A stretch of 64,000 nt of DNA from an uncultured Chloroflexia bacterium (GCA_963734535.1 CAVTHS010000014.1:1-64000); one strand, 5' to 3'. Positions 4,436-11,261 are shown, numbered from the stretch's first letter. A program made the numbers and translations. Notes: generated by a model from the letters alone, not told the origin.

Positions 4436-5098
4436 GTGACACGCCAAACGACGCCGAAGCGCGCGCCGCTCAGCCGGGACCGCGTATTGCGCGCCGCCCT
4501 GGAGCTCGCCGACGAGGGCGGCAGCGGGGCGCTGACGATGCAGGGGATCGGTCGCCGGCTCGGCGTGGAGGCGATGTCGCTCTACCGGCACGTTCACAAC
4601 AAGGACGACATCCTCGACGGGATCGTCGACCTCGTTTTCGCCGAGATCGAGCTGCCGGCCGATCGCTCGAGCTGGCGAACGGTGCTCCGGGCCCGATCGA
4701 TCTCGGCCCGCGCCGCCCTGCGCCGGCATCCCTGGGCGATCACCCTCATGGAGTCGCGCCTGACGCCCGGCCCGGCGAATCTGCGCAGCCACGAGGACAC
4801 GGTCTCCGTCCTGCTCGACTCGGGGTGCTCGGCGACAACGGCAACGCACGCCTACAACCTCGTTGACAGCTACGTGCTCGGGTTCGCGCTCCAGGAGGTG
4901 AACATGCCGTTCAGCAACGCGGAGGAGCTGGCGGCGGTGGGGGAGCTGCTGATCGCCCGCGTTCCGGCCGACCAGTACCCGAACCTCGTGCGCGTGGCGG
5001 CGGAGCTCCTCGCGTCCGGCTTCGATTACGCCGACGAGTTCGAGTTCGGTCTCGACCTCCTCCTCGACGGCATCGAGCGGGTCGTCCAGGGAGCCTGA
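4436..5098 (+). CDS. TetR/AcrR family regulator with TetR_C-type C-terminal domain
   Basis: LSRDRVLRAALELADE...LTMQGIGRRLGVEAMSLYRHVHNKDDIL HTH; EFEFGLDLLLDG C-terminus; GTG after GAGGAG. Confidence 0.92.
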   Translation: MTRQTTPKRAPLSRDRVLRAALELADEGGSGALTMQGIGRRLGVEAMSLYRHVHNKDDILDGIVDLVFAEIELPADRSSWRTVLRARSISARAALRRHPWAITLMESRLTPGPANLRSHEDTVSVLLDSGCSATTATHAYNLVDSYVLGFALQEVNMPFSNAEELAAVGELLIARVPADQYPNLVRVAAELLASGFDYADEFEFGLDLLLDGIERVVQGA

Positions 5099-5109
5099 TC
5101 GCCGGGCGA

Positions 5110-5290
5110 CGGCTCTCGCGGAACCTTGTCGGGCTCGCGCGCTCGATCGAGGACGAGCGCGGCTCGCCTCGCGGCCAGGTCGGGATCGACACGGAGCTCG
5201 TCGAACGCGGTACGCGGCGCGGGACGCGGAACGAGCCGAGGACGTAGGTGCGGTCCGGCGTTCTGTGCTCGTGAGGCACGACCGCGGGCG
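5110..5290 (-). pseudogene. Possible remnant of a multicopper-oxidase-like gene
   Basis: Fragments HEHRTPDRTYVLGSFRV and AFDELRVDPDLAARRAALVLDRAREPDK in two frames recall an internal segment of actinobacterial-type multicopper oxidases. No start or full domain; recognition from memory only. Confidence 0.3.
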
Positions 5291-5336
5291 GCGGGTCCGC
5301 AAGATGACGCCCCACGGTATGCCGAGCCAAGCACCA

Positions 5337-6112
5337 TCAAGGCACCGTCAGCGTCCCGTGCATCTGCTCCTCGTGACCGGGGATGCGGCAGTAGAAGTCG
5401 TACGTGCCCGGTTTCGGCGACGTGAGTTCGAACAGGTTCTCGCTGCGCGGCCCCACCTTCACATCGACGTTGAGAGCAGCGATCGTGAACGTGTGGATGA
5501 TCGGGTCATCGTTCCTGAATCACGAACTTCGTCGTGCCATCGGCAGCTGCCGTCAGCGTGTCCGTGTCGTACTTCAACCCGTAGGCGGTGATCGTTGTCG
5601 CCCCTTCCTTGTCGGCCGCCGAGACACCATGGATGCTGGCAACCGTGAGGACGGCGGAGATGATCGACAGGATTGCGACGAGCCCAAGGACGCCTTTGAC
5701 TCCCCTGGTCACGTTGGCGGGGCCGCTCGCGCTGGTGGCGACCCCGAACGTGCTGGACCAGGCCCGCGGAACTGCCAACGAGGACGAAGATGGCCGCCGC
5801 AAGGCCAATGACTGGCCGGTACGCGAAGTCGAAGAACGAGTCCGGCGAGGAGAGATTCTCGCCAAGTCCATCGATCGCGAACAGCATCCCGACGAGCCCG
5901 CCCAGGACGCCCACGATGAGGCCCCAGGGACGAACGAAGTAGATGACCGCACCGATTGACCCGGCGATGCCGCCGACAATGACCGGGTACGCCCATTCCG
6001 AAGGCTCGAGAACCAGGTTCACGATGAGGATGACGGCCTCGATGAAGAGGTACATCGCGATGCCCAGGAGTGCAATCCGGGTGTAGTACGGTGTCCCTGT
6101 CAGTTTCTGCAT
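5337..6112 (-). CDS. Multi-pass membrane protein with C-terminal cupredoxin (type-1 copper) domain; two apparent frameshifts
   Basis: Joined from three frames: MQKLTGTPYY... with about 5 TM helices, then GVKGVLGLVAILSII...YGLKYDTDTLT, then NDDPIIHTFTI...PGTYDFYCRIPGHEEQMHGTLTVP* with His-Cys-His-Met ligands. Frameshifts near 5740 and 5517. Confidence 0.78.
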
Positions 6113-6192
6113 TGCCTTGGCCCCTATCCGCTGCGCTCTTCTTCGTCTTCCAGGTCCGGCGCTCGGCCATTGACGGTGGGTGACACCATCCG

Positions 6193-6711
6193 CTAACGAC
6201 CGGCGGCTCCGGCGTGTTCGCCTTGCCGGAACTCGACGAGTGCCGGGTTGAGGAGCGGGTCGACCTGCGTCGCGGCTCCGGCGTGTTCGCCTTGCCGGAA
6301 CTCGACGAGTGCCGGGTTGAGGAGCGGGTCGACCTGCGTCGCGGCTCCGGCGTGTTCGCCTTGCCGGAACTCGACGAGTGCCGGGTTGAGGAGCGGGTCG
6401 ACCTGCGTCGCGGCTCCGGCGTGTTCGCCTTGCCGGAACTCGACGAGTGCCGGGTTGAGGAGCGGGTCGACCTGCGTCGCGGCTCCGGCGTGTTCGCCTT
6501 GCCGGAACTCGACGAGTGCCGGGTTGAGGAGCGGGTCGACCTGCGTCGCGGCTCCGGCGCCCGGGGCAGGCGAACCCGTGATCAGGGCCGTTGCGAGGAT
6601 CGCCGCGGAAACGACGGCCACGATGACCGCTGCGATGAGGAATGCCGGGCCGAAGAGGTGTGCCTGCCCGCTCGTTTCCCTGGCCTTTGTACCCTGCTGC
6701 ACCAGATCCAT
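6193..6711 (-). CDS. Membrane-targeted/secreted protein with five identical 23-aa repeats (AGAATQVDPLLNPALVEFRQGEH)
   Basis: ATG at 6711 lies 7 nt after an AGGGGG RBS; the hydrophobic helix AFLIAAVIVAVVSAAILATALITG is followed by 5 repeats and AGAAGR-stop. Confidence 0.72.
   Translation of the reverse strand: MDLVQQGTKARETSGQAHLFGPAFLIAAVIVAVVSAAILATALITGSPAPGAGAATQVDPLLNPALVEFRQGEHAGAATQVDPLLNPALVEFRQGEHAGAATQVDPLLNPALVEFRQGEHAGAATQVDPLLNPALVEFRQGEHAGAATQVDPLLNPALVEFRQGEHAGAAGR
6203..6559. repeat. Perfect tandem repeat, 5 x 69 bp plus a partial copy
   Basis: Unit ggctccggcgtgttcgccttgccggaactcgacgagtgccgggttgaggagcgggtcgacctgcgtcgc starts at 6205, 6274, 6343, 6412 and 6481, with a 10-bp partial at 6550; no spacers. 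Confidence 0.97.
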
Positions 6712-6763
6712 TGTCATGCCCCCTGCGTGGCACCCGGCGGGTGCTTCTACGATCGGGGCGTGA

Positions 6764-6799
6764 GATCTGACGGCACGAGCGTTCGATCCCACGGCACGA
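6764..6799. promoter_or_regulatory. Direct-repeat operator candidate GATCnnACGGCACGA x2
   Basis: GATCtgACGGCACGA (6764-6778) and GATCccACGGCACGA (6785-6799), 21-bp period, between the repeat-protein gene and the divergent STAND regulator. Confidence 0.55.
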
Positions 6800-6920
6800 A
6801 TCGCCGTATCACTCGCGCATCCCGCTGAACGTATGTACGGTGGCGCCGAGCGGATCCGATGTCGCGGGCGGTGCAGTCGACATCCTTCGTCAACGTGGGG
6901 GAGTGGGGGGCAGCCAACTC

Positions 6921-9900
6921 GTGGCTCAGCTGCAGCCAGGCGCGTTCTTCGTCGGTCGTGATCGCGAGCTTCGCGAGCTGCTCGACGCGCTCGATGAGGC
7001 CGGATCCGGCCGAGGTCGCATCATCATGCTCGGCGGCGAGCCAGGCATCGGCAAGAGCCGCCTGGCGGACGAGCTGGCAACGCGTGCCCGAGAGCGCGGA
7101 CACCAGGTCCTCTGGGGTCGCGGCTGGGAGGACGCCGGGGCGCCCCCGTACTGGCCCTGGGTCCAGGCGCTTCGGTCCTACCTGCGATCGACCGACGCCG
7201 ACGACATCCGGCGGCAGATGGGATCCGGTGCGCGCGACATCGCCCAGATGCTGCCAGAGCTGCGCGACCTGTTCCCGGATCTCCCGGCCGCGCCCGATCC
7301 CGATTCGGAGTCGGCGCGGTTCCAGCTGTTCGACTCGACGGCCACGCTCCTGCGCAACGCCGCACGCGCCCGCCCTATGCTCATCGTCCTCGACGACCTG
7401 CAGGCCGCCGATACGCCCTCGATCCTGTTTCTCCGCTTCCTGGCCAGCCAGCTGAGCGACATGCCGGTACTCCTTGTCGCGACCTATCGCGACGTCGAGC
7501 TGACGCCGGAACACCCGCTCACCTCGGCGATCGCCGAGGTGGCTCGAGAGCCACTCACCCGCATCCTCGTGCTTGCCGGATTGGCGTCGGATGCCGTCGG
7601 ACAGTTCATCGTGGCGACCGCGAACGTCACGCCTCACGACCACCTCGTTGCAGCGGTGTGGCGAGAGACCACGGGTAATCCGCTTTTCGTCGGAGAGGCG
7701 ATCCGTCTGCTGTCCGCCGAGGGACGCCTCAGCGAGGTGGCGGACCTTCCGTCGCTGAGGGTCGCGGTCCCGGCTGGCATTCGGGCGGTCATCGGTCGTC
7801 GGATCGGGCACCTCAACGAGGCGACCATCCGAGGTCTCGGACTCGGGGCTGCGCTCGGTCCCGAATTCAGCCTCGAAGTCCTGCGTCGGATCGGCGAGTT
7901 CGGGATCGACCAGGCGCTCGAGCTCGTCGATGAGGCGGTCGAGTCGGGCCTGCTCCTGCCGGTCGCCGGCGTACTGGGTAGATACCGCTTCTCCCACGAC
8001 CTCGTGCGCGAGTCCCTGTACGACGAGCTGTCGCCTGGCCGGCGAGCTCGCCTCCATCGGCACATCGCACATGTCCTCGAAGAGATCTATGCGACGTCGA
8101 CCGAGGGACATCTCGCTGAGCTTGCCTTCCACTACGTCGAAGCTGCACAGGGCGGGGATGCTGGTCTGGCGCCGAGCGATGTCGAACGCGATGGACCCAA
8201 GGCCATCGACTATGCGAGGCGGGCCGGGAACGATGCAGCCAGGTCGCTGGCGTACGAGGAGGCGGCGCGCCTCTACCGCATGGCGCTGGCCGTGCTCGAC
8301 GCCGATGGCGTGGCGGATGACCAGGCCCGGGGGGAGACCCTGCTCGCGCTCGGCGACGTCGAGGCCCGTGCGGGCGAGCTCGACGATGCACGCACGACCT
8401 TCCTCGAGGCGGCGGACATCGCCCGGCGGACCGGCGCCGGGCAGCACCTGGCGCGGGCCGCGCTCGGCTTCGGTGGTCGTCACCCATGGGCACGTCCTGG
8501 CAAGGACACGCGGCTCATCCCCCTCCTGCAGGACGCGCTGGTCATGCTCGGCGGCACCGACGATCGCCTCCGCGTTCGCCTGCTGACCCGCCTCGCCTGC
8601 GCCTGGCGCAGCACGCCGGAGCGGCGGAACGACAGTGCGGCGCTGAGCCGGCAGGCTGTCGAGATCGCGCGCGGGTTGGATGATCCCGCCAGCCTCAGCT
8701 ACGCTCTCGCCGGTCGCTTCTGGGCGACGTGGTGGCCGGAGAACCCAGCCGAGCGGCTGCCGATCGCACAGGAAATGGCCGGGATAGCGGAGGCGCTCGC
8801 GGACGGCGAACGCATCACGGCCCACCTGATGTTGTTCCTCAGCCTCAGCGAGCTCGGCCGGATCGCGGAAGCCCGAAGTGAGTCGGACACCCTCAGCCGC
8901 GTTGTCGGGGAGCTGCGTCAGCCGGCGCACCTGTGGCTGGAGCCCGTCAACCGCGCGGAGCTGGCCCTGCTGGAGGGGGAATTCGTCCTGGCGGAGGAGC
9001 TCATCGCCTGGGAGATGGCGTCGCGTCATCGGGTCACACCCGGTCGCGACGACGTTTCGGCTGCTCGGATGCACCGATTTCTGCTCCGTCGCGAGCAGGG
9101 CCGGATTGCCGAGGAAGAGGCGACGGTGCGGACCTCGATCGACGATTTTCCGTGGTACCCATTCCATCGGGCGGCGCTGGCGTGCCTCCTCCTCGATCTG
9201 GGCCGGGATGCGGAGGCGGGCGTCGTTCTTGACGATCTCGCGGAGCACGAATTCAGGGCGCTGTACCGGGACAACGAATGGCTCCTCGGGATGAGCCTCG
9301 CCAGCGAGGCGTGCGCAAGGCTGGGCGATGCTTCGGCTGCCTCCACGCTGTACAACCAGTTGCAGCCTTTCGCCGGTCGGCACGCGGTCGGGCATGCGGA
9401 GGGAAGCGTTGGAGCAGTCGACCGCTACCTGGGGCTGCTCGCAGCGACACTCGGCCGGCTCGACGACGCGGATCGCCACCTGACGGCGGCGATCCAGTTC
9501 AACGAGCGAATGGGCGCACGTCCCTGGACGGCCCATAGCCAGCATGATCTGGCCGTGGTCCTCGTGCGACGCGACATCCCTGGCGACAGAGAACGGGCCC
9601 GGCAGCTCGACCGCGCGGCGCGAGCCACCGCGGACAAGCTCGGCATGGTGCTGGCAGAAGGGATCAGCGCCGGTACCGACGAGCCAACGTCCGCGGCGGC
9701 GCCCGGATCCCCGCTGACCTCGGGCACGTTCCGCCGCGAGGGCGAGTACTGGACGATCGAACTCGGGCGGGAGGCGTTCCGGGTCCGGGACTCAAAGGGC
9801 GTCCGTCATCTTGCACGTCTGCTCGCCGCACCTGGCCGCGAAGTGCATGCCCTCGAGCTCGCGCGTCTCGAGTCCCCGCGGGCCGGCGCCGCCACGGTAG

Positions 9901-10298
9901 CCGATGGATCCATGCCGGCCGATGGGCTCGGCGACGCCGGACCGGCGCTCGATGCCGAGGCGAAAGCCGCCTACCGACAGAGGCTCCAGGAGATTCGCCG
10001 AGAGCTCGCGGAGGCGGAGGGCTGGAACGACCCGGAACGCGTCGCTCGGCTGCAGGCCGAGGAAGTGGCGCTCGGGCGTGAGCTGGCTGCTGCGCTCGGA
10101 CTCGGAGGACGCGACCGTTCGTCCGCCTCCGCGGCAGAGCGCGCGCGGGTGAGCGTCACGCGAGCGATTCGGACCGCATTGCTGCGGATCGCCGAGCATA
10201 GCCCAGCCCTCGGGGATCACTTCGGCGCCACGATCCGGACCGGGACGTTCTGTTCCTACATGCCTGACCCTCGCGCGCCGATCACATGGCGGCCGTGA
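6921..10298 (+). CDS. Large STAND (AAA_16) ATPase-TPR transcriptional regulator with C-terminal winged-HTH-like domain
   Basis: FVGRDRELREL, GGEPGIGKSRL Walker A, LIVLDDLQAAD Walker B, TTGNPLFV, YRFSHDLVRE, helical repeats, C-terminal FRREGEYW...RDSKGVRHLARLL...AERARVSVTRAIR...IRTGTFCSY. Start GTG 6921 (ORF from 6840). Confidence 0.87.
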   Translation: MAQLQPGAFFVGRDRELRELLDALDEAGSGRGRIIMLGGEPGIGKSRLADELATRARERGHQVLWGRGWEDAGAPPYWPWVQALRSYLRSTDADDIRRQMGSGARDIAQMLPELRDLFPDLPAAPDPDSESARFQLFDSTATLLRNAARARPMLIVLDDLQAADTPSILFLRFLASQLSDMPVLLVATYRDVELTPEHPLTSAIAEVAREPLTRILVLAGLASDAVGQFIVATANVTPHDHLVAAVWRETTGNPLFVGEAIRLLSAEGRLSEVADLPSLRVAVPAGIRAVIGRRIGHLNEATIRGLGLGAALGPEFSLEVLRRIGEFGIDQALELVDEAVESGLLLPVAGVLGRYRFSHDLVRESLYDELSPGRRARLHRHIAHVLEEIYATSTEGHLAELAFHYVEAAQGGDAGLAPSDVERDGPKAIDYARRAGNDAARSLAYEEAARLYRMALAVLDADGVADDQARGETLLALGDVEARAGELDDARTTFLEAADIARRTGAGQHLARAALGFGGRHPWARPGKDTRLIPLLQDALVMLGGTDDRLRVRLLTRLACAWRSTPERRNDSAALSRQAVEIARGLDDPASLSYALAGRFWATWWPENPAERLPIAQEMAGIAEALADGERITAHLMLFLSLSELGRIAEARSESDTLSRVVGELRQPAHLWLEPVNRAELALLEGEFVLAEELIAWEMASRHRVTPGRDDVSAARMHRFLLRREQGRIAEEEATVRTSIDDFPWYPFHRAALACLLLDLGRDAEAGVVLDDLAEHEFRALYRDNEWLLGMSLASEACARLGDASAASTLYNQLQPFAGRHAVGHAEGSVGAVDRYLGLLAATLGRLDDADRHLTAAIQFNERMGARPWTAHSQHDLAVVLVRRDIPGDRERARQLDRAARATADKLGMVLAEGISAGTDEPTSAAAPGSPLTSGTFRREGEYWTIELGREAFRVRDSKGVRHLARLLAAPGREVHALELARLESPRAGAATVADGSMPADGLGDAGPALDAEAKAAYRQRLQEIRRELAEAEGWNDPERVARLQAEEVALGRELAAALGLGGRDRSSASAAERARVSVTRAIRTALLRIAEHSPALGDHFGATIRTGTFCSYMPDPRAPITWRP

Positions 10299-10519
10299 CG
10301 ACGGTTTCGGGATTCGGACGAGGGCGAGCCAGGCGACGGTGAGCAGGCGTGCTCCTCCGCGCGCGACCAGGGCCGCTCGAACCGGCCGGGCTCGGACGCG
10401 GTGCCGCGGCCCGGGCTGATGCGACGGACGAGACCGCTGTTGCGCGCGAAAGCGACGGGGGCGGCCACGCCAGGCACGTCGCCGAGCGGGGCCGCACCTG
10501 CCGCGACGTGAGTCGCCGA

Positions 10520-11261
10520 TCAGCTCCCGGCGAGCACCTCGAATCGCCAGTACGGCCAGTCCCCGTCGGCGGTCTCGAACGTCCCCGAGGCGCGCAGCGG
10601 GATCCGTTCGCCGGACGACAGGCGTTCGTGGCGGTCGAACTCGAGTCGGTAGGGTTCATGCAGGTATCCGGCGCGTCCGTGCTCGCGAGGCCGATCCGGC
10701 GACCGGGCCGATCGAACGTCGCCAGCGTCGTCGACCGTTACCCGGACGATTGCGTCGACGTCGATCCCAGGAGCCGCGAGGGTGAAGGCGTCCTCGCCGT
10801 CCGCCACCCACGACGAGTCCTCGCGCTCGCGACGCGGCGAGTGGAGCGAAGGCAAGCTCCGCGAGATTGCGGACGAGCTGCGACCGCGTCACCTCGGGCC
10901 CCCGGGCGGACCCGACCGGGATCACGCCGAGCAGTCGCGCTCCGCCGTAGCCTCCCTCGCGATCGAGCCGGTCCTCGGCGTCGACCCAGACCAGCCGCGA
11001 CAACCGCAGCCTGGCTTGCCAGCGAAAGCCGAGCCCTTCGGTTTCGAACGATTGGTGCCCGTCCCAGTCCATCCATCTCCCTCCGGGTGCCCGACAGATC
11101 GAACCCCGGACGTGGAGCCGTGTTGGGCCGGGATCATCGCCGGTCGGGACCGCCGCGTGGATCGCTGCCTCGAGCCAGCGGCGAGCGGCCAGCGGGCGAT
11201 CCGCCACGGTCGGTGGTGCTCCGCCCGGGGAGCGGTCTCCGGAATGAGCCATTGCCTTCAT
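10520..11261 (-). CDS. DUF6544-like protein, split by a frameshift near 10815
   Basis: GFRWQARLR...DAEDRLDREGG...LLGVIPVGSARGPEVTRSQLVRNLAELAFAP continues in another frame to IPLRASGTFETADGDWPYWRFEV*. Confidence 0.65.

Follow-up and report, generated by a model that had tools for sequence, protein, structure and literature searches.

The two genes described here, one encoding a large STAND-type regulator and the other a small membrane protein with identical tandem repeats, are divergently arranged in a 64,000-nucleotide stretch of DNA from an uncultured Chloroflexia bacterium (GCA_963734535.1, CAVTHS010000014.1, positions 1-64000; hereafter the window), and very probably form a functional pair that behaves as a self-contained two-gene cassette. 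The window is ~70% GC and belongs to contig C14 of a 3.2-Mb, 14-contig genome, and records related to it are labelled as Chloroflexia or Chloroflexota metagenome-assembled genomes. The original prediction had described a small gene with one hydrophobic helix and five DNA-identical repeats, divergent from a regulator of ~1125 amino acids and separated from it by a 21-bp repeat, all of which was confirmed, and it had named conserved adjacency of the two genes as the decisive test. Scanning genome and metagenome contigs and related genomes yielded 15 other loci with a small gene of the same type, recognized by its EFRxGE repeat motif (L005, L006, L007, L008, L025 and L029-L038; L024 duplicates L007 and was counted once). 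A regulator ortholog (60-88% identity) lies divergently upstream in 12 of these 15 (tblastn), a strongly positive result within the close family, and the remaining three are short of DNA: the small gene of L008 is cut at a contig end, and upstream DNA is lacking in L036 and limited to 316 nt in L038. L008 was dropped as a potential counter-example, as its truncated gene leaves room for a co-directional downstream regulator.

The borders of the cassette are sharp. DNA homology between the window and L025, L007, L005, L006 and L037 is confined to 6173/6191-10299, and thus runs from stop codon to stop codon (blastn). Past these borders the genes vary by locus (M23 peptidase, ArsC, glucosaminidase, shikimate kinase, cyclase, Fic, B3_4 and LtrA), and no conserved modifying enzyme, protease, exporter or importer was found among the neighbours of the pair in the loci examined. 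Full regulator orthologs occur in three of 41 related genomes (G000, G012 and G013), and it is these same three that contain a close small gene. The original prediction had also placed a downstream membrane cupredoxin in the module. Across the 18 related loci searched, tblastn matched neither the four-transmembrane-helix part of that protein, nor either of its cupredoxin halves, nor TetR, and the DUF6326 protein and the hydrolase of the window were likewise unmatched in related loci. Because the cupredoxin found no match in these 18 loci, and because homology ends at the stop codon of the small gene, we reject it as a component of the system and, judging from this comparison of loci, regard it as a neighbour only.

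The small gene occupies 6193-6717 on the minus strand (stop codon 6193-6195) within an open reading frame (ORF) of 6193-6792. As its homologs begin at the corresponding position, with MDL.QQG, the likely start is the ATG at 6717, giving 174 amino acids, or that at 6711, giving the 172 of the original prediction. The product comprises a polar N-terminal tail of ~22 residues, one transmembrane helix, five 23-residue repeats and a six-residue tail ending in GR. The single hydrophobic helix is encoded at 6574-6654 on the minus strand (residues ~22-48), and AlphaFold models residues 22-47 as a helix with a predicted local distance difference test (pLDDT) score of 80-93, the N-terminal tail as a weaker helix (pLDDT 59-69) and the repeat region with no confident fold (pLDDT ~40). 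Lysine and arginine residues within 15 positions of the helix total 66 on the N-terminal side and 25 on the C-terminal side across 26 family members, the rows counted having been picked with a motif pattern that was defined after the family had been seen. From this surplus of positive charge the tail is predicted to reside in the cytoplasm and the repeats outside the cell.

The repeats are encoded by a 69-nt tandem array at 6203-6559 (minus strand), in which Tandem Repeats Finder detects 5.2 copies with 100% matches and 0 indels. Each unit encodes the 23 residues AGAATQVDPLLNPALVEFRQGEH, with the motif LVEFRQGEH, and the core that is invariant across relatives is (L/I/M)(V/I)(E/Q)FR.(G/S)E. 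Arrays of the same period are present in L005 (2.9 copies), L006 (3.0), L007 (4.9), L025 (6.9) and L035 (2.9). In the subclade of the window the repeats within a gene are 97-100% identical at the DNA level, a value that exceeds the ~75-80% identity between genomes, and the arrays are thus kept uniform while copy number (2-7) changes; in other clades within-gene identity is 72-93%.

Database searches provided little guidance to the function of the small protein. The 28 homologs found are of 102-150 amino acids with 2-4 repeats; none contains a Pfam domain, and they are labelled hypothetical wherever a source names them. A profile of the EFRxGE protein detected 152 representative clusters at E ≤ 1e-3, and 50 at 1e-10, among 1.84 billion proteins. 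Searches of Pfam, NCBIfam and PADLOC with the small protein returned no family match, the Pfam matches to RRM_occluded, TPR_16 and TPR_4, which lay below the cut-offs throughout, being taken as low-complexity noise, and the top score in the ESM Atlas (0.80) was to an unnamed cluster. The gene has no second copy in its own genome. Four long profile matches were inspected and none was informative as a guide to function: P0249 is a mistranslated repeat, P0279 contains unrelated GEQ-type repeats, P0302 is an over-extended ORF and P0346 is a VEWRQG-repeat protein. The last of these, a secreted-looking protein of 337 amino acids with approximately eight 22-residue repeats (core VEW(R/K)QG.YSG), may be a distant relative of the EFRxGE motif in another, larger setting.

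The regulator gene extends from 6921 to 10298 on the plus strand and encodes 1125 amino acids. The longest ORF, 6840-10298 (plus strand), would encode 1152; however, orthologs differ by one-base indels within 6840-6920, which places the true start at the GTG at 6921, and GTG or TTG stands at this position in every one of seven aligned loci. The predicted architecture of an AAA_16 domain, tetratricopeptide repeats (TPRs) and a winged helix was borne out by Pfam for the first two elements, and for the third by fold only, at the C terminus. The AAA_16 NTPase domain (PF13191; E 1.4e-28, above the cut-off) is encoded at 6948-7478 on the plus strand, corresponding to residues 37-213 of the 1152-residue ORF, and retains intact Walker A (GEPGIGKS) and Walker B (hhhhDD) motifs. 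It is followed by a helical sensor region (residues ~420-900), in which the best TPR_12 stretch (PF13424; plus strand, 8337-8462) scores 28.8 bits against a cut-off of 30.1 (E 1.5e-6), and homologs carry PF13424, PF13181 and PF07719.

The C-terminal 221 residues (9633-10295, plus strand) are modelled by AlphaFold, from a 51-row alignment, with a pLDDT of 81.7, and appear to form an OmpR/PhoB-like winged helix that is split by an insertion. In the model a three-stranded sheet and a helix are followed by a disordered loop, a helical hairpin, two further helices and a terminal hairpin. Nine OmpR/PhoB-type DNA-binding domains are among the top 50 VIA-align matches, the other rows matching the hairpin only; they include BaeR (Z 7.8, 93 residues aligned), GlnR (Z 7.5, 91 aligned, target 95) and AdeR, CssR, VicR, CpxR, VanR and ArlR (Z 6.8-7.2), although these Z scores reach only 6.8-7.8, and values below 8 may reflect a common arrangement. 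All of these matches span model residues ~29-213 and so bridge the insertion. Foldseek found no match to the model in the PDB at E ≤ 1e-3, and Pfam detected no HTH, GerE, Trans_reg_C or BTAD domain in the regulator. The assignment of the C terminus as an OmpR/PhoB-like winged helix, which is based on modelled structure, thus has moderate support. Searching the PDB by sequence with the regulator gave 0 matches. In a comparison with anti-phage STAND (Avs-like) systems, PADLOC gave only P-loop-level matches (mad8, E 0.0025; BrxD, E 0.0048), and the terminal domain resembles a DNA-binding one.

The regulator is unique in its own genome, where its paralogs share only 31-33% identity, and existing annotation of such proteins extends no further than AAA ATPase or TPR protein. 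The C-terminal domain was recognized in 3369 proteins at E ≤ 1e-3 among 8000 scored, mostly of ~1120-1130 amino acids. It is more widespread than the cassette, since a STAND protein of a Streptomyces plasmid has the same domain (49.5% identity) with a different NTPase, and its small neighbour, DUF6417, has neither helix nor repeats.

Some loci contain rearranged versions of the pair. In L006 (500-8400) a tandem cassette duplication comprises two small genes and two regulators, the latter 76-77% identical to that of the window. A stop interrupts the inner small gene at codon three, and the 3' end of this gene merges with the end of the second regulator, from which the last ~29 residues are missing. 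The class search revealed the same two-copy tandem arrangement in G727. A congener that has no cassette, G001, contains a 142-amino-acid ORF (C1:492167-492463, minus strand) that shares 75% identity with the final ~99 residues of the regulator, and is either the remnant of a lost cassette or a stand-alone C-terminal half-domain.

The intergenic region is itself highly conserved. In an alignment of seven loci its mean column identity is 82%, compared with ~76% in the surrounding coding DNA, and the best-conserved block includes the two 21-bp direct repeats (6758-6778 and 6779-6799, unstranded; 81% identity between units), which lie 41-82 bp upstream of the small-gene ATG. Read on the strand of the small gene, the repeats (6799 to 6758) are followed by 8 nt, by a -10-like hexamer, TAGAAG (6744-6749, minus strand), and by ~25 nt with a G-rich ribosome site before the ATG. 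The hexamer, which was picked by eye and would act as the promoter element, is conserved as TAGA[AG]G in 7/7 aligned loci. A sigma-70 consensus scan returned 0 promoters, as it missed this hexamer for want of the usual final T, and the three terminator-like sites detected are no more than in shuffled controls. We infer that the 21-bp repeats are a candidate operator for the winged helix of the regulator. A second conserved non-coding block, of 39 nt (6827-6865, plus strand), lies upstream of the true start of the regulator gene; it is almost invariant among seven loci that differ by ~24% elsewhere, and may represent the promoter or leader of that gene. Rfam gave no match at E ≤ 1 over 5000-10600, and RNAalifold gave no clear consensus structure for the block, the method being uninformative for such GC-rich sequence.

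To what extent the pairing persists in more distant relatives was explored in genomes of the class and phylum, where the regulator is present in 33 of 401 (E ≤ 1e-120) and 17 of 401 (E ≤ 1e-60), respectively, tallies that include the unpublished genomes G309, G546 and G486. Upstream DNA was taken for 23 orthologs of 54-78% identity (G727, G714, G769 and the unpublished genomes being left out), ORFs were screened on position, GC content at third codon positions (GC3) and hydrophobicity, and repeats were judged by eye. A small gene encoding a transmembrane helix and repeats lies upstream of 22 of the 23 orthologs, in either divergent or co-directional orientation; L056 and L064 are cut by contig ends and L067 is split over two frames. 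The repeats, mostly of DGW type, fall into several motif classes: V(T/V)DGW...(Y/L)L, which is shared by many loci, DGWEAGL or DG(F/Y)LPG in L056, L057, L071 and L078, DGWMHSPFTR or TDGWM..LPGVG in L039, L064, L069 and L070, DVSTD.AEAIRGA in L079 and, in the weakest case, only two copies of QHVLREN in L065. The profile of one DGW clade detected 89 clusters. A quick maximum-likelihood tree of 26 regulators recovers the EFRxGE clade as monophyletic (eight rows; Shimodaira-Hasegawa-like approximate likelihood ratio 99) and nested among the DGW clades, with gene orientation tracking the clades; on this tree the motif classes appear to follow the phylogeny of the regulator. Upstream small genes of this kind were not found for homologs of 38-43% (0/6) or 31-39% (0/15) identity.

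Several individual loci merit comment. In L079 (G731:C31) the N-terminal 330 residues of the regulator are 78% identical to those of the window protein, the ORF being only 496 amino acids, and the small protein combines a window-like N-terminal tail (MDLV.QGT) with four copies of an unrelated 21-residue unit (DVSTD.AEAIRGA...), as if the repeat portion had been exchanged while the head was conserved. A conserved gene of ~230-260 amino acids, with no Pfam match at E ≤ 1e-3, is found just upstream of the cassette in four loci from a single family within the class (L039:1568-2284, L058, L070 and L078); in L058, where the small gene is absent, it abuts the regulator directly. Upstream of a STAND homolog of 39% identity, L041 (2532-2924) contains a two-copy 39-nt tandem DNA repeat that reads as repeats on both strands and is either coding or an operator.

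The closest analogue of the pair known to us is AfsR/AfsS, with the Rap-Phr systems that contain repeated autoinducers second, in each case by analogy and not by membership. AfsR of Streptomyces, a STAND regulator that combines TPRs with an OmpR-type domain, is reported to activate the adjacent afsS, and AfsS to contain 2-5 repeats of low cross-species identity that bind AfsR and strengthen its binding to DNA (PMC10832544). The pair described here similarly combines a winged helix, a STAND NTPase and TPRs with an adjacent small gene whose repeats, 2-7 in number, diverge rapidly. At SARP sites, which adjoin the -35/-10 region, direct repeats are spaced by 11 or 22 bp and the 3' one stands 8 bp from the -10 element (PMC10936776). 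The layout of the window, with a spacing of 21 bp and 8 bp to a hexamer chosen by eye, is suggestively similar to such promoters. In contrast with AfsR, however, the DNA-binding domain here is C-terminal and split, the protein starts directly with AAA_16, no Trans_reg_C or BTAD domain is evident by sequence and the NTPase scores as AAA_16, not NB-ARC. Furthermore, AfsS is soluble and cytoplasmic, whereas the small protein has a membrane helix; as its repeats are predicted to lie outside the cell, AfsS-like direct contact would be impossible without release and uptake. No sequence homology was seen between the two systems.

As in the RRNPP systems (Rap-Phr, NprR, PlcR, PrgX and AimR), a gene for a cytoplasmic TPR-type receptor adjoins a small precursor-like gene, and the distribution is patchy and resembles that of a mobile cassette. 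The small protein has an N-terminal hydrophobic segment, but this is of anchor length, and its cleavage is putative. RRNPP receptors, in contrast, consist of TPRs with an N-terminal HTH or three-helix bundle and not of a ~1125-residue STAND NTPase with an OmpR-like C terminus, and the present system differs also in its occurrence in Chloroflexota, in its units of 15-23 amino acids and in a precursor gene that is upstream or divergent, with peptide release and binding putative. The order of an N-terminal AAA_16-type NTPase, a helical-repeat sensor and a C-terminal DNA-binding domain is that of MalT and other LAL STAND factors, an architecture that constitutes a ligand-gated ATP switch; Pfam, however, detects no GerE/LuxR HTH here, the C terminus being OmpR-like, and we know of no obligate small partner gene for MalT. 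Fungal alpha-factor-type precursors likewise contain several copies of one peptide, in varying number and kept alike. The alpha-factor system is eukaryotic and relies on Kex2-type spacers and a surface receptor, and no comparable spacer motif is present in the repeats described here. In a study of phr genes, some of these are described as carrying several identical or variant autoinducer repeats, which are read as a route to new specificities, and the parallel with fungal multi-copy pheromones is drawn there also (PMC5199041).

How might the cassette operate? We think it rather probable that the regulator binds the two 21-bp repeats, which abut the -35 position, and activates the small gene as AfsR does at afsS. 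It is likely, in addition, that the small protein inserts with its N terminus in the cytoplasm, which would leave the disordered repeats exposed on the outer side of the membrane or release them there. The third step is considerably more tentative: the repeat units would themselves be the signal, freed peptides being re-imported to act on the TPR sensor, and with ATP-driven oligomerization an autoinduction loop would close, producing a STAND counterpart of Rap-Phr with a multi-copy precursor. The whole chain, in which the regulator drives expression of a repeat protein that is exported and then signals back through its units, is one that we put forward as a possibility that more probably fails than holds. 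Stated in full, the proposal is of a STAND-class peptide communication system in which the units of a multi-copy pheromone precursor are re-imported and gate an OmpR-type factor on the precursor's own promoter, and this we consider speculative. Equally conjectural is its corollary, that the motif classes (EFRxGE, several DGW types and others) are pherotypes that diversify by repeat expansion and contraction.

It should be emphasized that several observations weigh against this peptide-signal proposal. The hydrophobic segment, at 20-27 residues, resembles an anchor more than a cleavable signal; AxA-like sites occur 10-25 residues past it, and no cleavage motif common to the motif classes was found. 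No linked protease, exporter or importer was evident in the loci examined. The co-variation between repeat motif and TPR domain for which the original prediction proposed to look was not detected: sliding-window identity across 25 regulators is flat (0.39-0.75), with no patch that separates the motif classes, and pairwise difference maps reveal no clustering of changes in the TPR region. Indeed, between the window and L025 the repeat core differs at 5 of 14 positions and the regulators at 125, of which ~26 fall in the ~450-residue TPR region and 54 in residues ~904-1103. At the promoter, the -10-like hexamer is without its usual final T, and direct repeats of 10, 11, 20, 21 or 22 bp (at least 16/21 matching) were found in the relevant place upstream of none of 21 loci from other clades. 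The modest Z scores of the OmpR-like matches count on the same side. One ortholog, L058, has no small gene. Conversely, the congeners G006, G011 and G020 contain two-repeat relatives (LIEFRAGER or LIEYRA.ER) with no regulator ortholog within 18 kb, or elsewhere in those genomes with the query used, and the L038 relative sits behind a gene ending in a GerE/LuxR-type helix-turn-helix. These orphans, which indicate that the small protein can exist without the regulator, belong to a third, single-helix subfamily (L012 in G006, L013 in G011, L014 in G020 and L038:317-628), and are flanked by LemA and an M48 peptidase in G006 and by a SAM methyltransferase and CBS/BON in G011 and G020. A complex prediction for regulator residues 400-1125 with three repeats (residues 54-122) scored 0.00 and was used neither way.

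It could be argued instead that the small protein is retained in the membrane, where its cytoplasmic N-terminal tail would exert control over the regulator, either by sequestering it, as occurs with other regulators at membranes, or as a co-factor, in the manner of AfsS with AfsR; the external repeats would then serve for sensing or protease cleavage and thereby release the regulator. We regard such a membrane-tethered partner as rather unlikely, but it accommodates the data in several respects. The tail and helix remain recognizably homologous across motif classes, as in L079; the tail, at 13-40 residues, exceeds what a signal peptide needs and is predicted to be helical; and the anchor length of the hydrophobic segment and the lack of TPR/repeat co-variation both fit. 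In 3 of 18 small proteins the N terminus also faintly matches, far below the cut-off, the NCBIfam family CU044_5270 of single-pass membrane proteins, which points the same way. Contact between tail and regulator is, however, purely hypothetical, no protease is linked to the pair, and tethering leaves unexplained why a tandem external array should be held identical by concerted evolution.

In a simpler scheme, which we consider improbable, the regulator responds to a different cue and induces the small gene, with no feedback from the product of that gene, a surface or secreted repeat protein with a role in the envelope, such as matrix formation, adhesion, wall binding or antagonism. The promoter architecture marks the small gene as a direct target, the regulator-less relatives in G006, G011 and G020 suggest that the protein can work alone, and the absence of detectable TPR co-variation is as this scheme would have it. 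A 1125-residue regulator that moves with a single gene of 100-220 amino acids, however, suggests a tighter tie than that of regulator and target, particularly as the pair spans at least two bacterial families, two orientations and changing motifs. In the closest analogue, AfsR/AfsS, the small repeat protein does feed back on its regulator, according to the published account.

Three further explanations are very unlikely even when taken together. That the repeats are core peptides of a ribosomally synthesized and post-translationally modified peptide (RiPP) precursor, modified by enzymes and then released, is suggested by a leader-like N terminus followed by repeated cores, and by a sub-threshold match of the AAA_16 region to a TOMM kinase/cyclase (122 bits against a cut-off of 706); as the original prediction had noted for the window, however, no RiPP-modifying enzyme is apparent, a conserved modifying enzyme, protease or exporter lies beside the pair in no locus examined, and a membrane helix would be unusual as a leader, so that we give this explanation little credence. 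Less credible again is the copper-binding stalk that the original prediction had offered as an alternative, citing the one histidine per repeat, in which the small protein would work with the cupredoxin encoded 81 nt away on the same strand; that histidine is replaced by R or Q in most homologs, and the cupredoxin, as described above, was matched in none of the 18 related loci searched. It is similarly hard to credit that the array is an assembly artefact, or a non-coding repeat misread as a gene, even though no read-derived contig from public sequencing runs bridges it and two likely one-base errors lie nearby, because five other genomes or contigs contain arrays of 2.9-6.9 copies (97-100% identity) that agree with it in period and frame; moreover, across 152 representative clusters the amino-acid sequence of tail, helix and motif is conserved, GC3 is 0.75-0.92, and the collapsed repeat contig has a depth of 55 compared with 11.5-15 in its flanks, a weak hint of ~4-5 copies.

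The neighbouring cupredoxin gene (5337-6112, minus strand), directly downstream of the small gene, is of interest with respect to the quality of the assembly. Pfam identifies Cupredoxin_1 (1.6e-9) in its last 60 amino acids, and the protein contains a type-1 copper domain with a C-x4-H-x3-M site. In the window the gene is distributed over three reading frames: four membrane helices are encoded in the first; the second, which ends at a stop, contributes one more helix and the initial half of the cupredoxin; and the copper-site half is in the third. Contigs from the public run X1, which are 98-99% identical to the window, have one base fewer at 5518 and one at 5737, and run X3 has one base fewer at 5520 and one at 5737, although X1 may be the source sample of the window, in which case its support is not fully independent. 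The missing bases fall exactly at the frame changes, which argues for two one-base insertion errors in the window and not for a pseudogene; the two frameshifts are thus probably assembly errors, and deleting one base at each site restores a single ORF of ~257 amino acids. Single-base errors of this sort may also affect other genes in the genome.

Neither gene family has been named or functionally described, and we found no account of the regulator/small-gene pair in the open-access literature searched, yet it is frequently encountered among uncultured Chloroflexota from soil and sediment. To our knowledge no peptide communication system has been described in this phylum. If the repeats are signals, the cassette would provide the Chloroflexota with peptide communication and offer a catalogue of natural ligand-receptor variants, and with this regulator peptide quorum sensing would for the first time have a receptor of neither the RRNPP nor the two-component type, as well as its first receptor in the phylum. 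On the same condition, the AfsR/AfsS principle would apply outside Streptomyces as well, and would reach across the membrane. Should the small protein prove instead to be a tethered partner or an output of the regulator, the cassette would still represent a compact sensor-regulator-target unit, and one that is directly testable because its operator can be guessed from the sequence.

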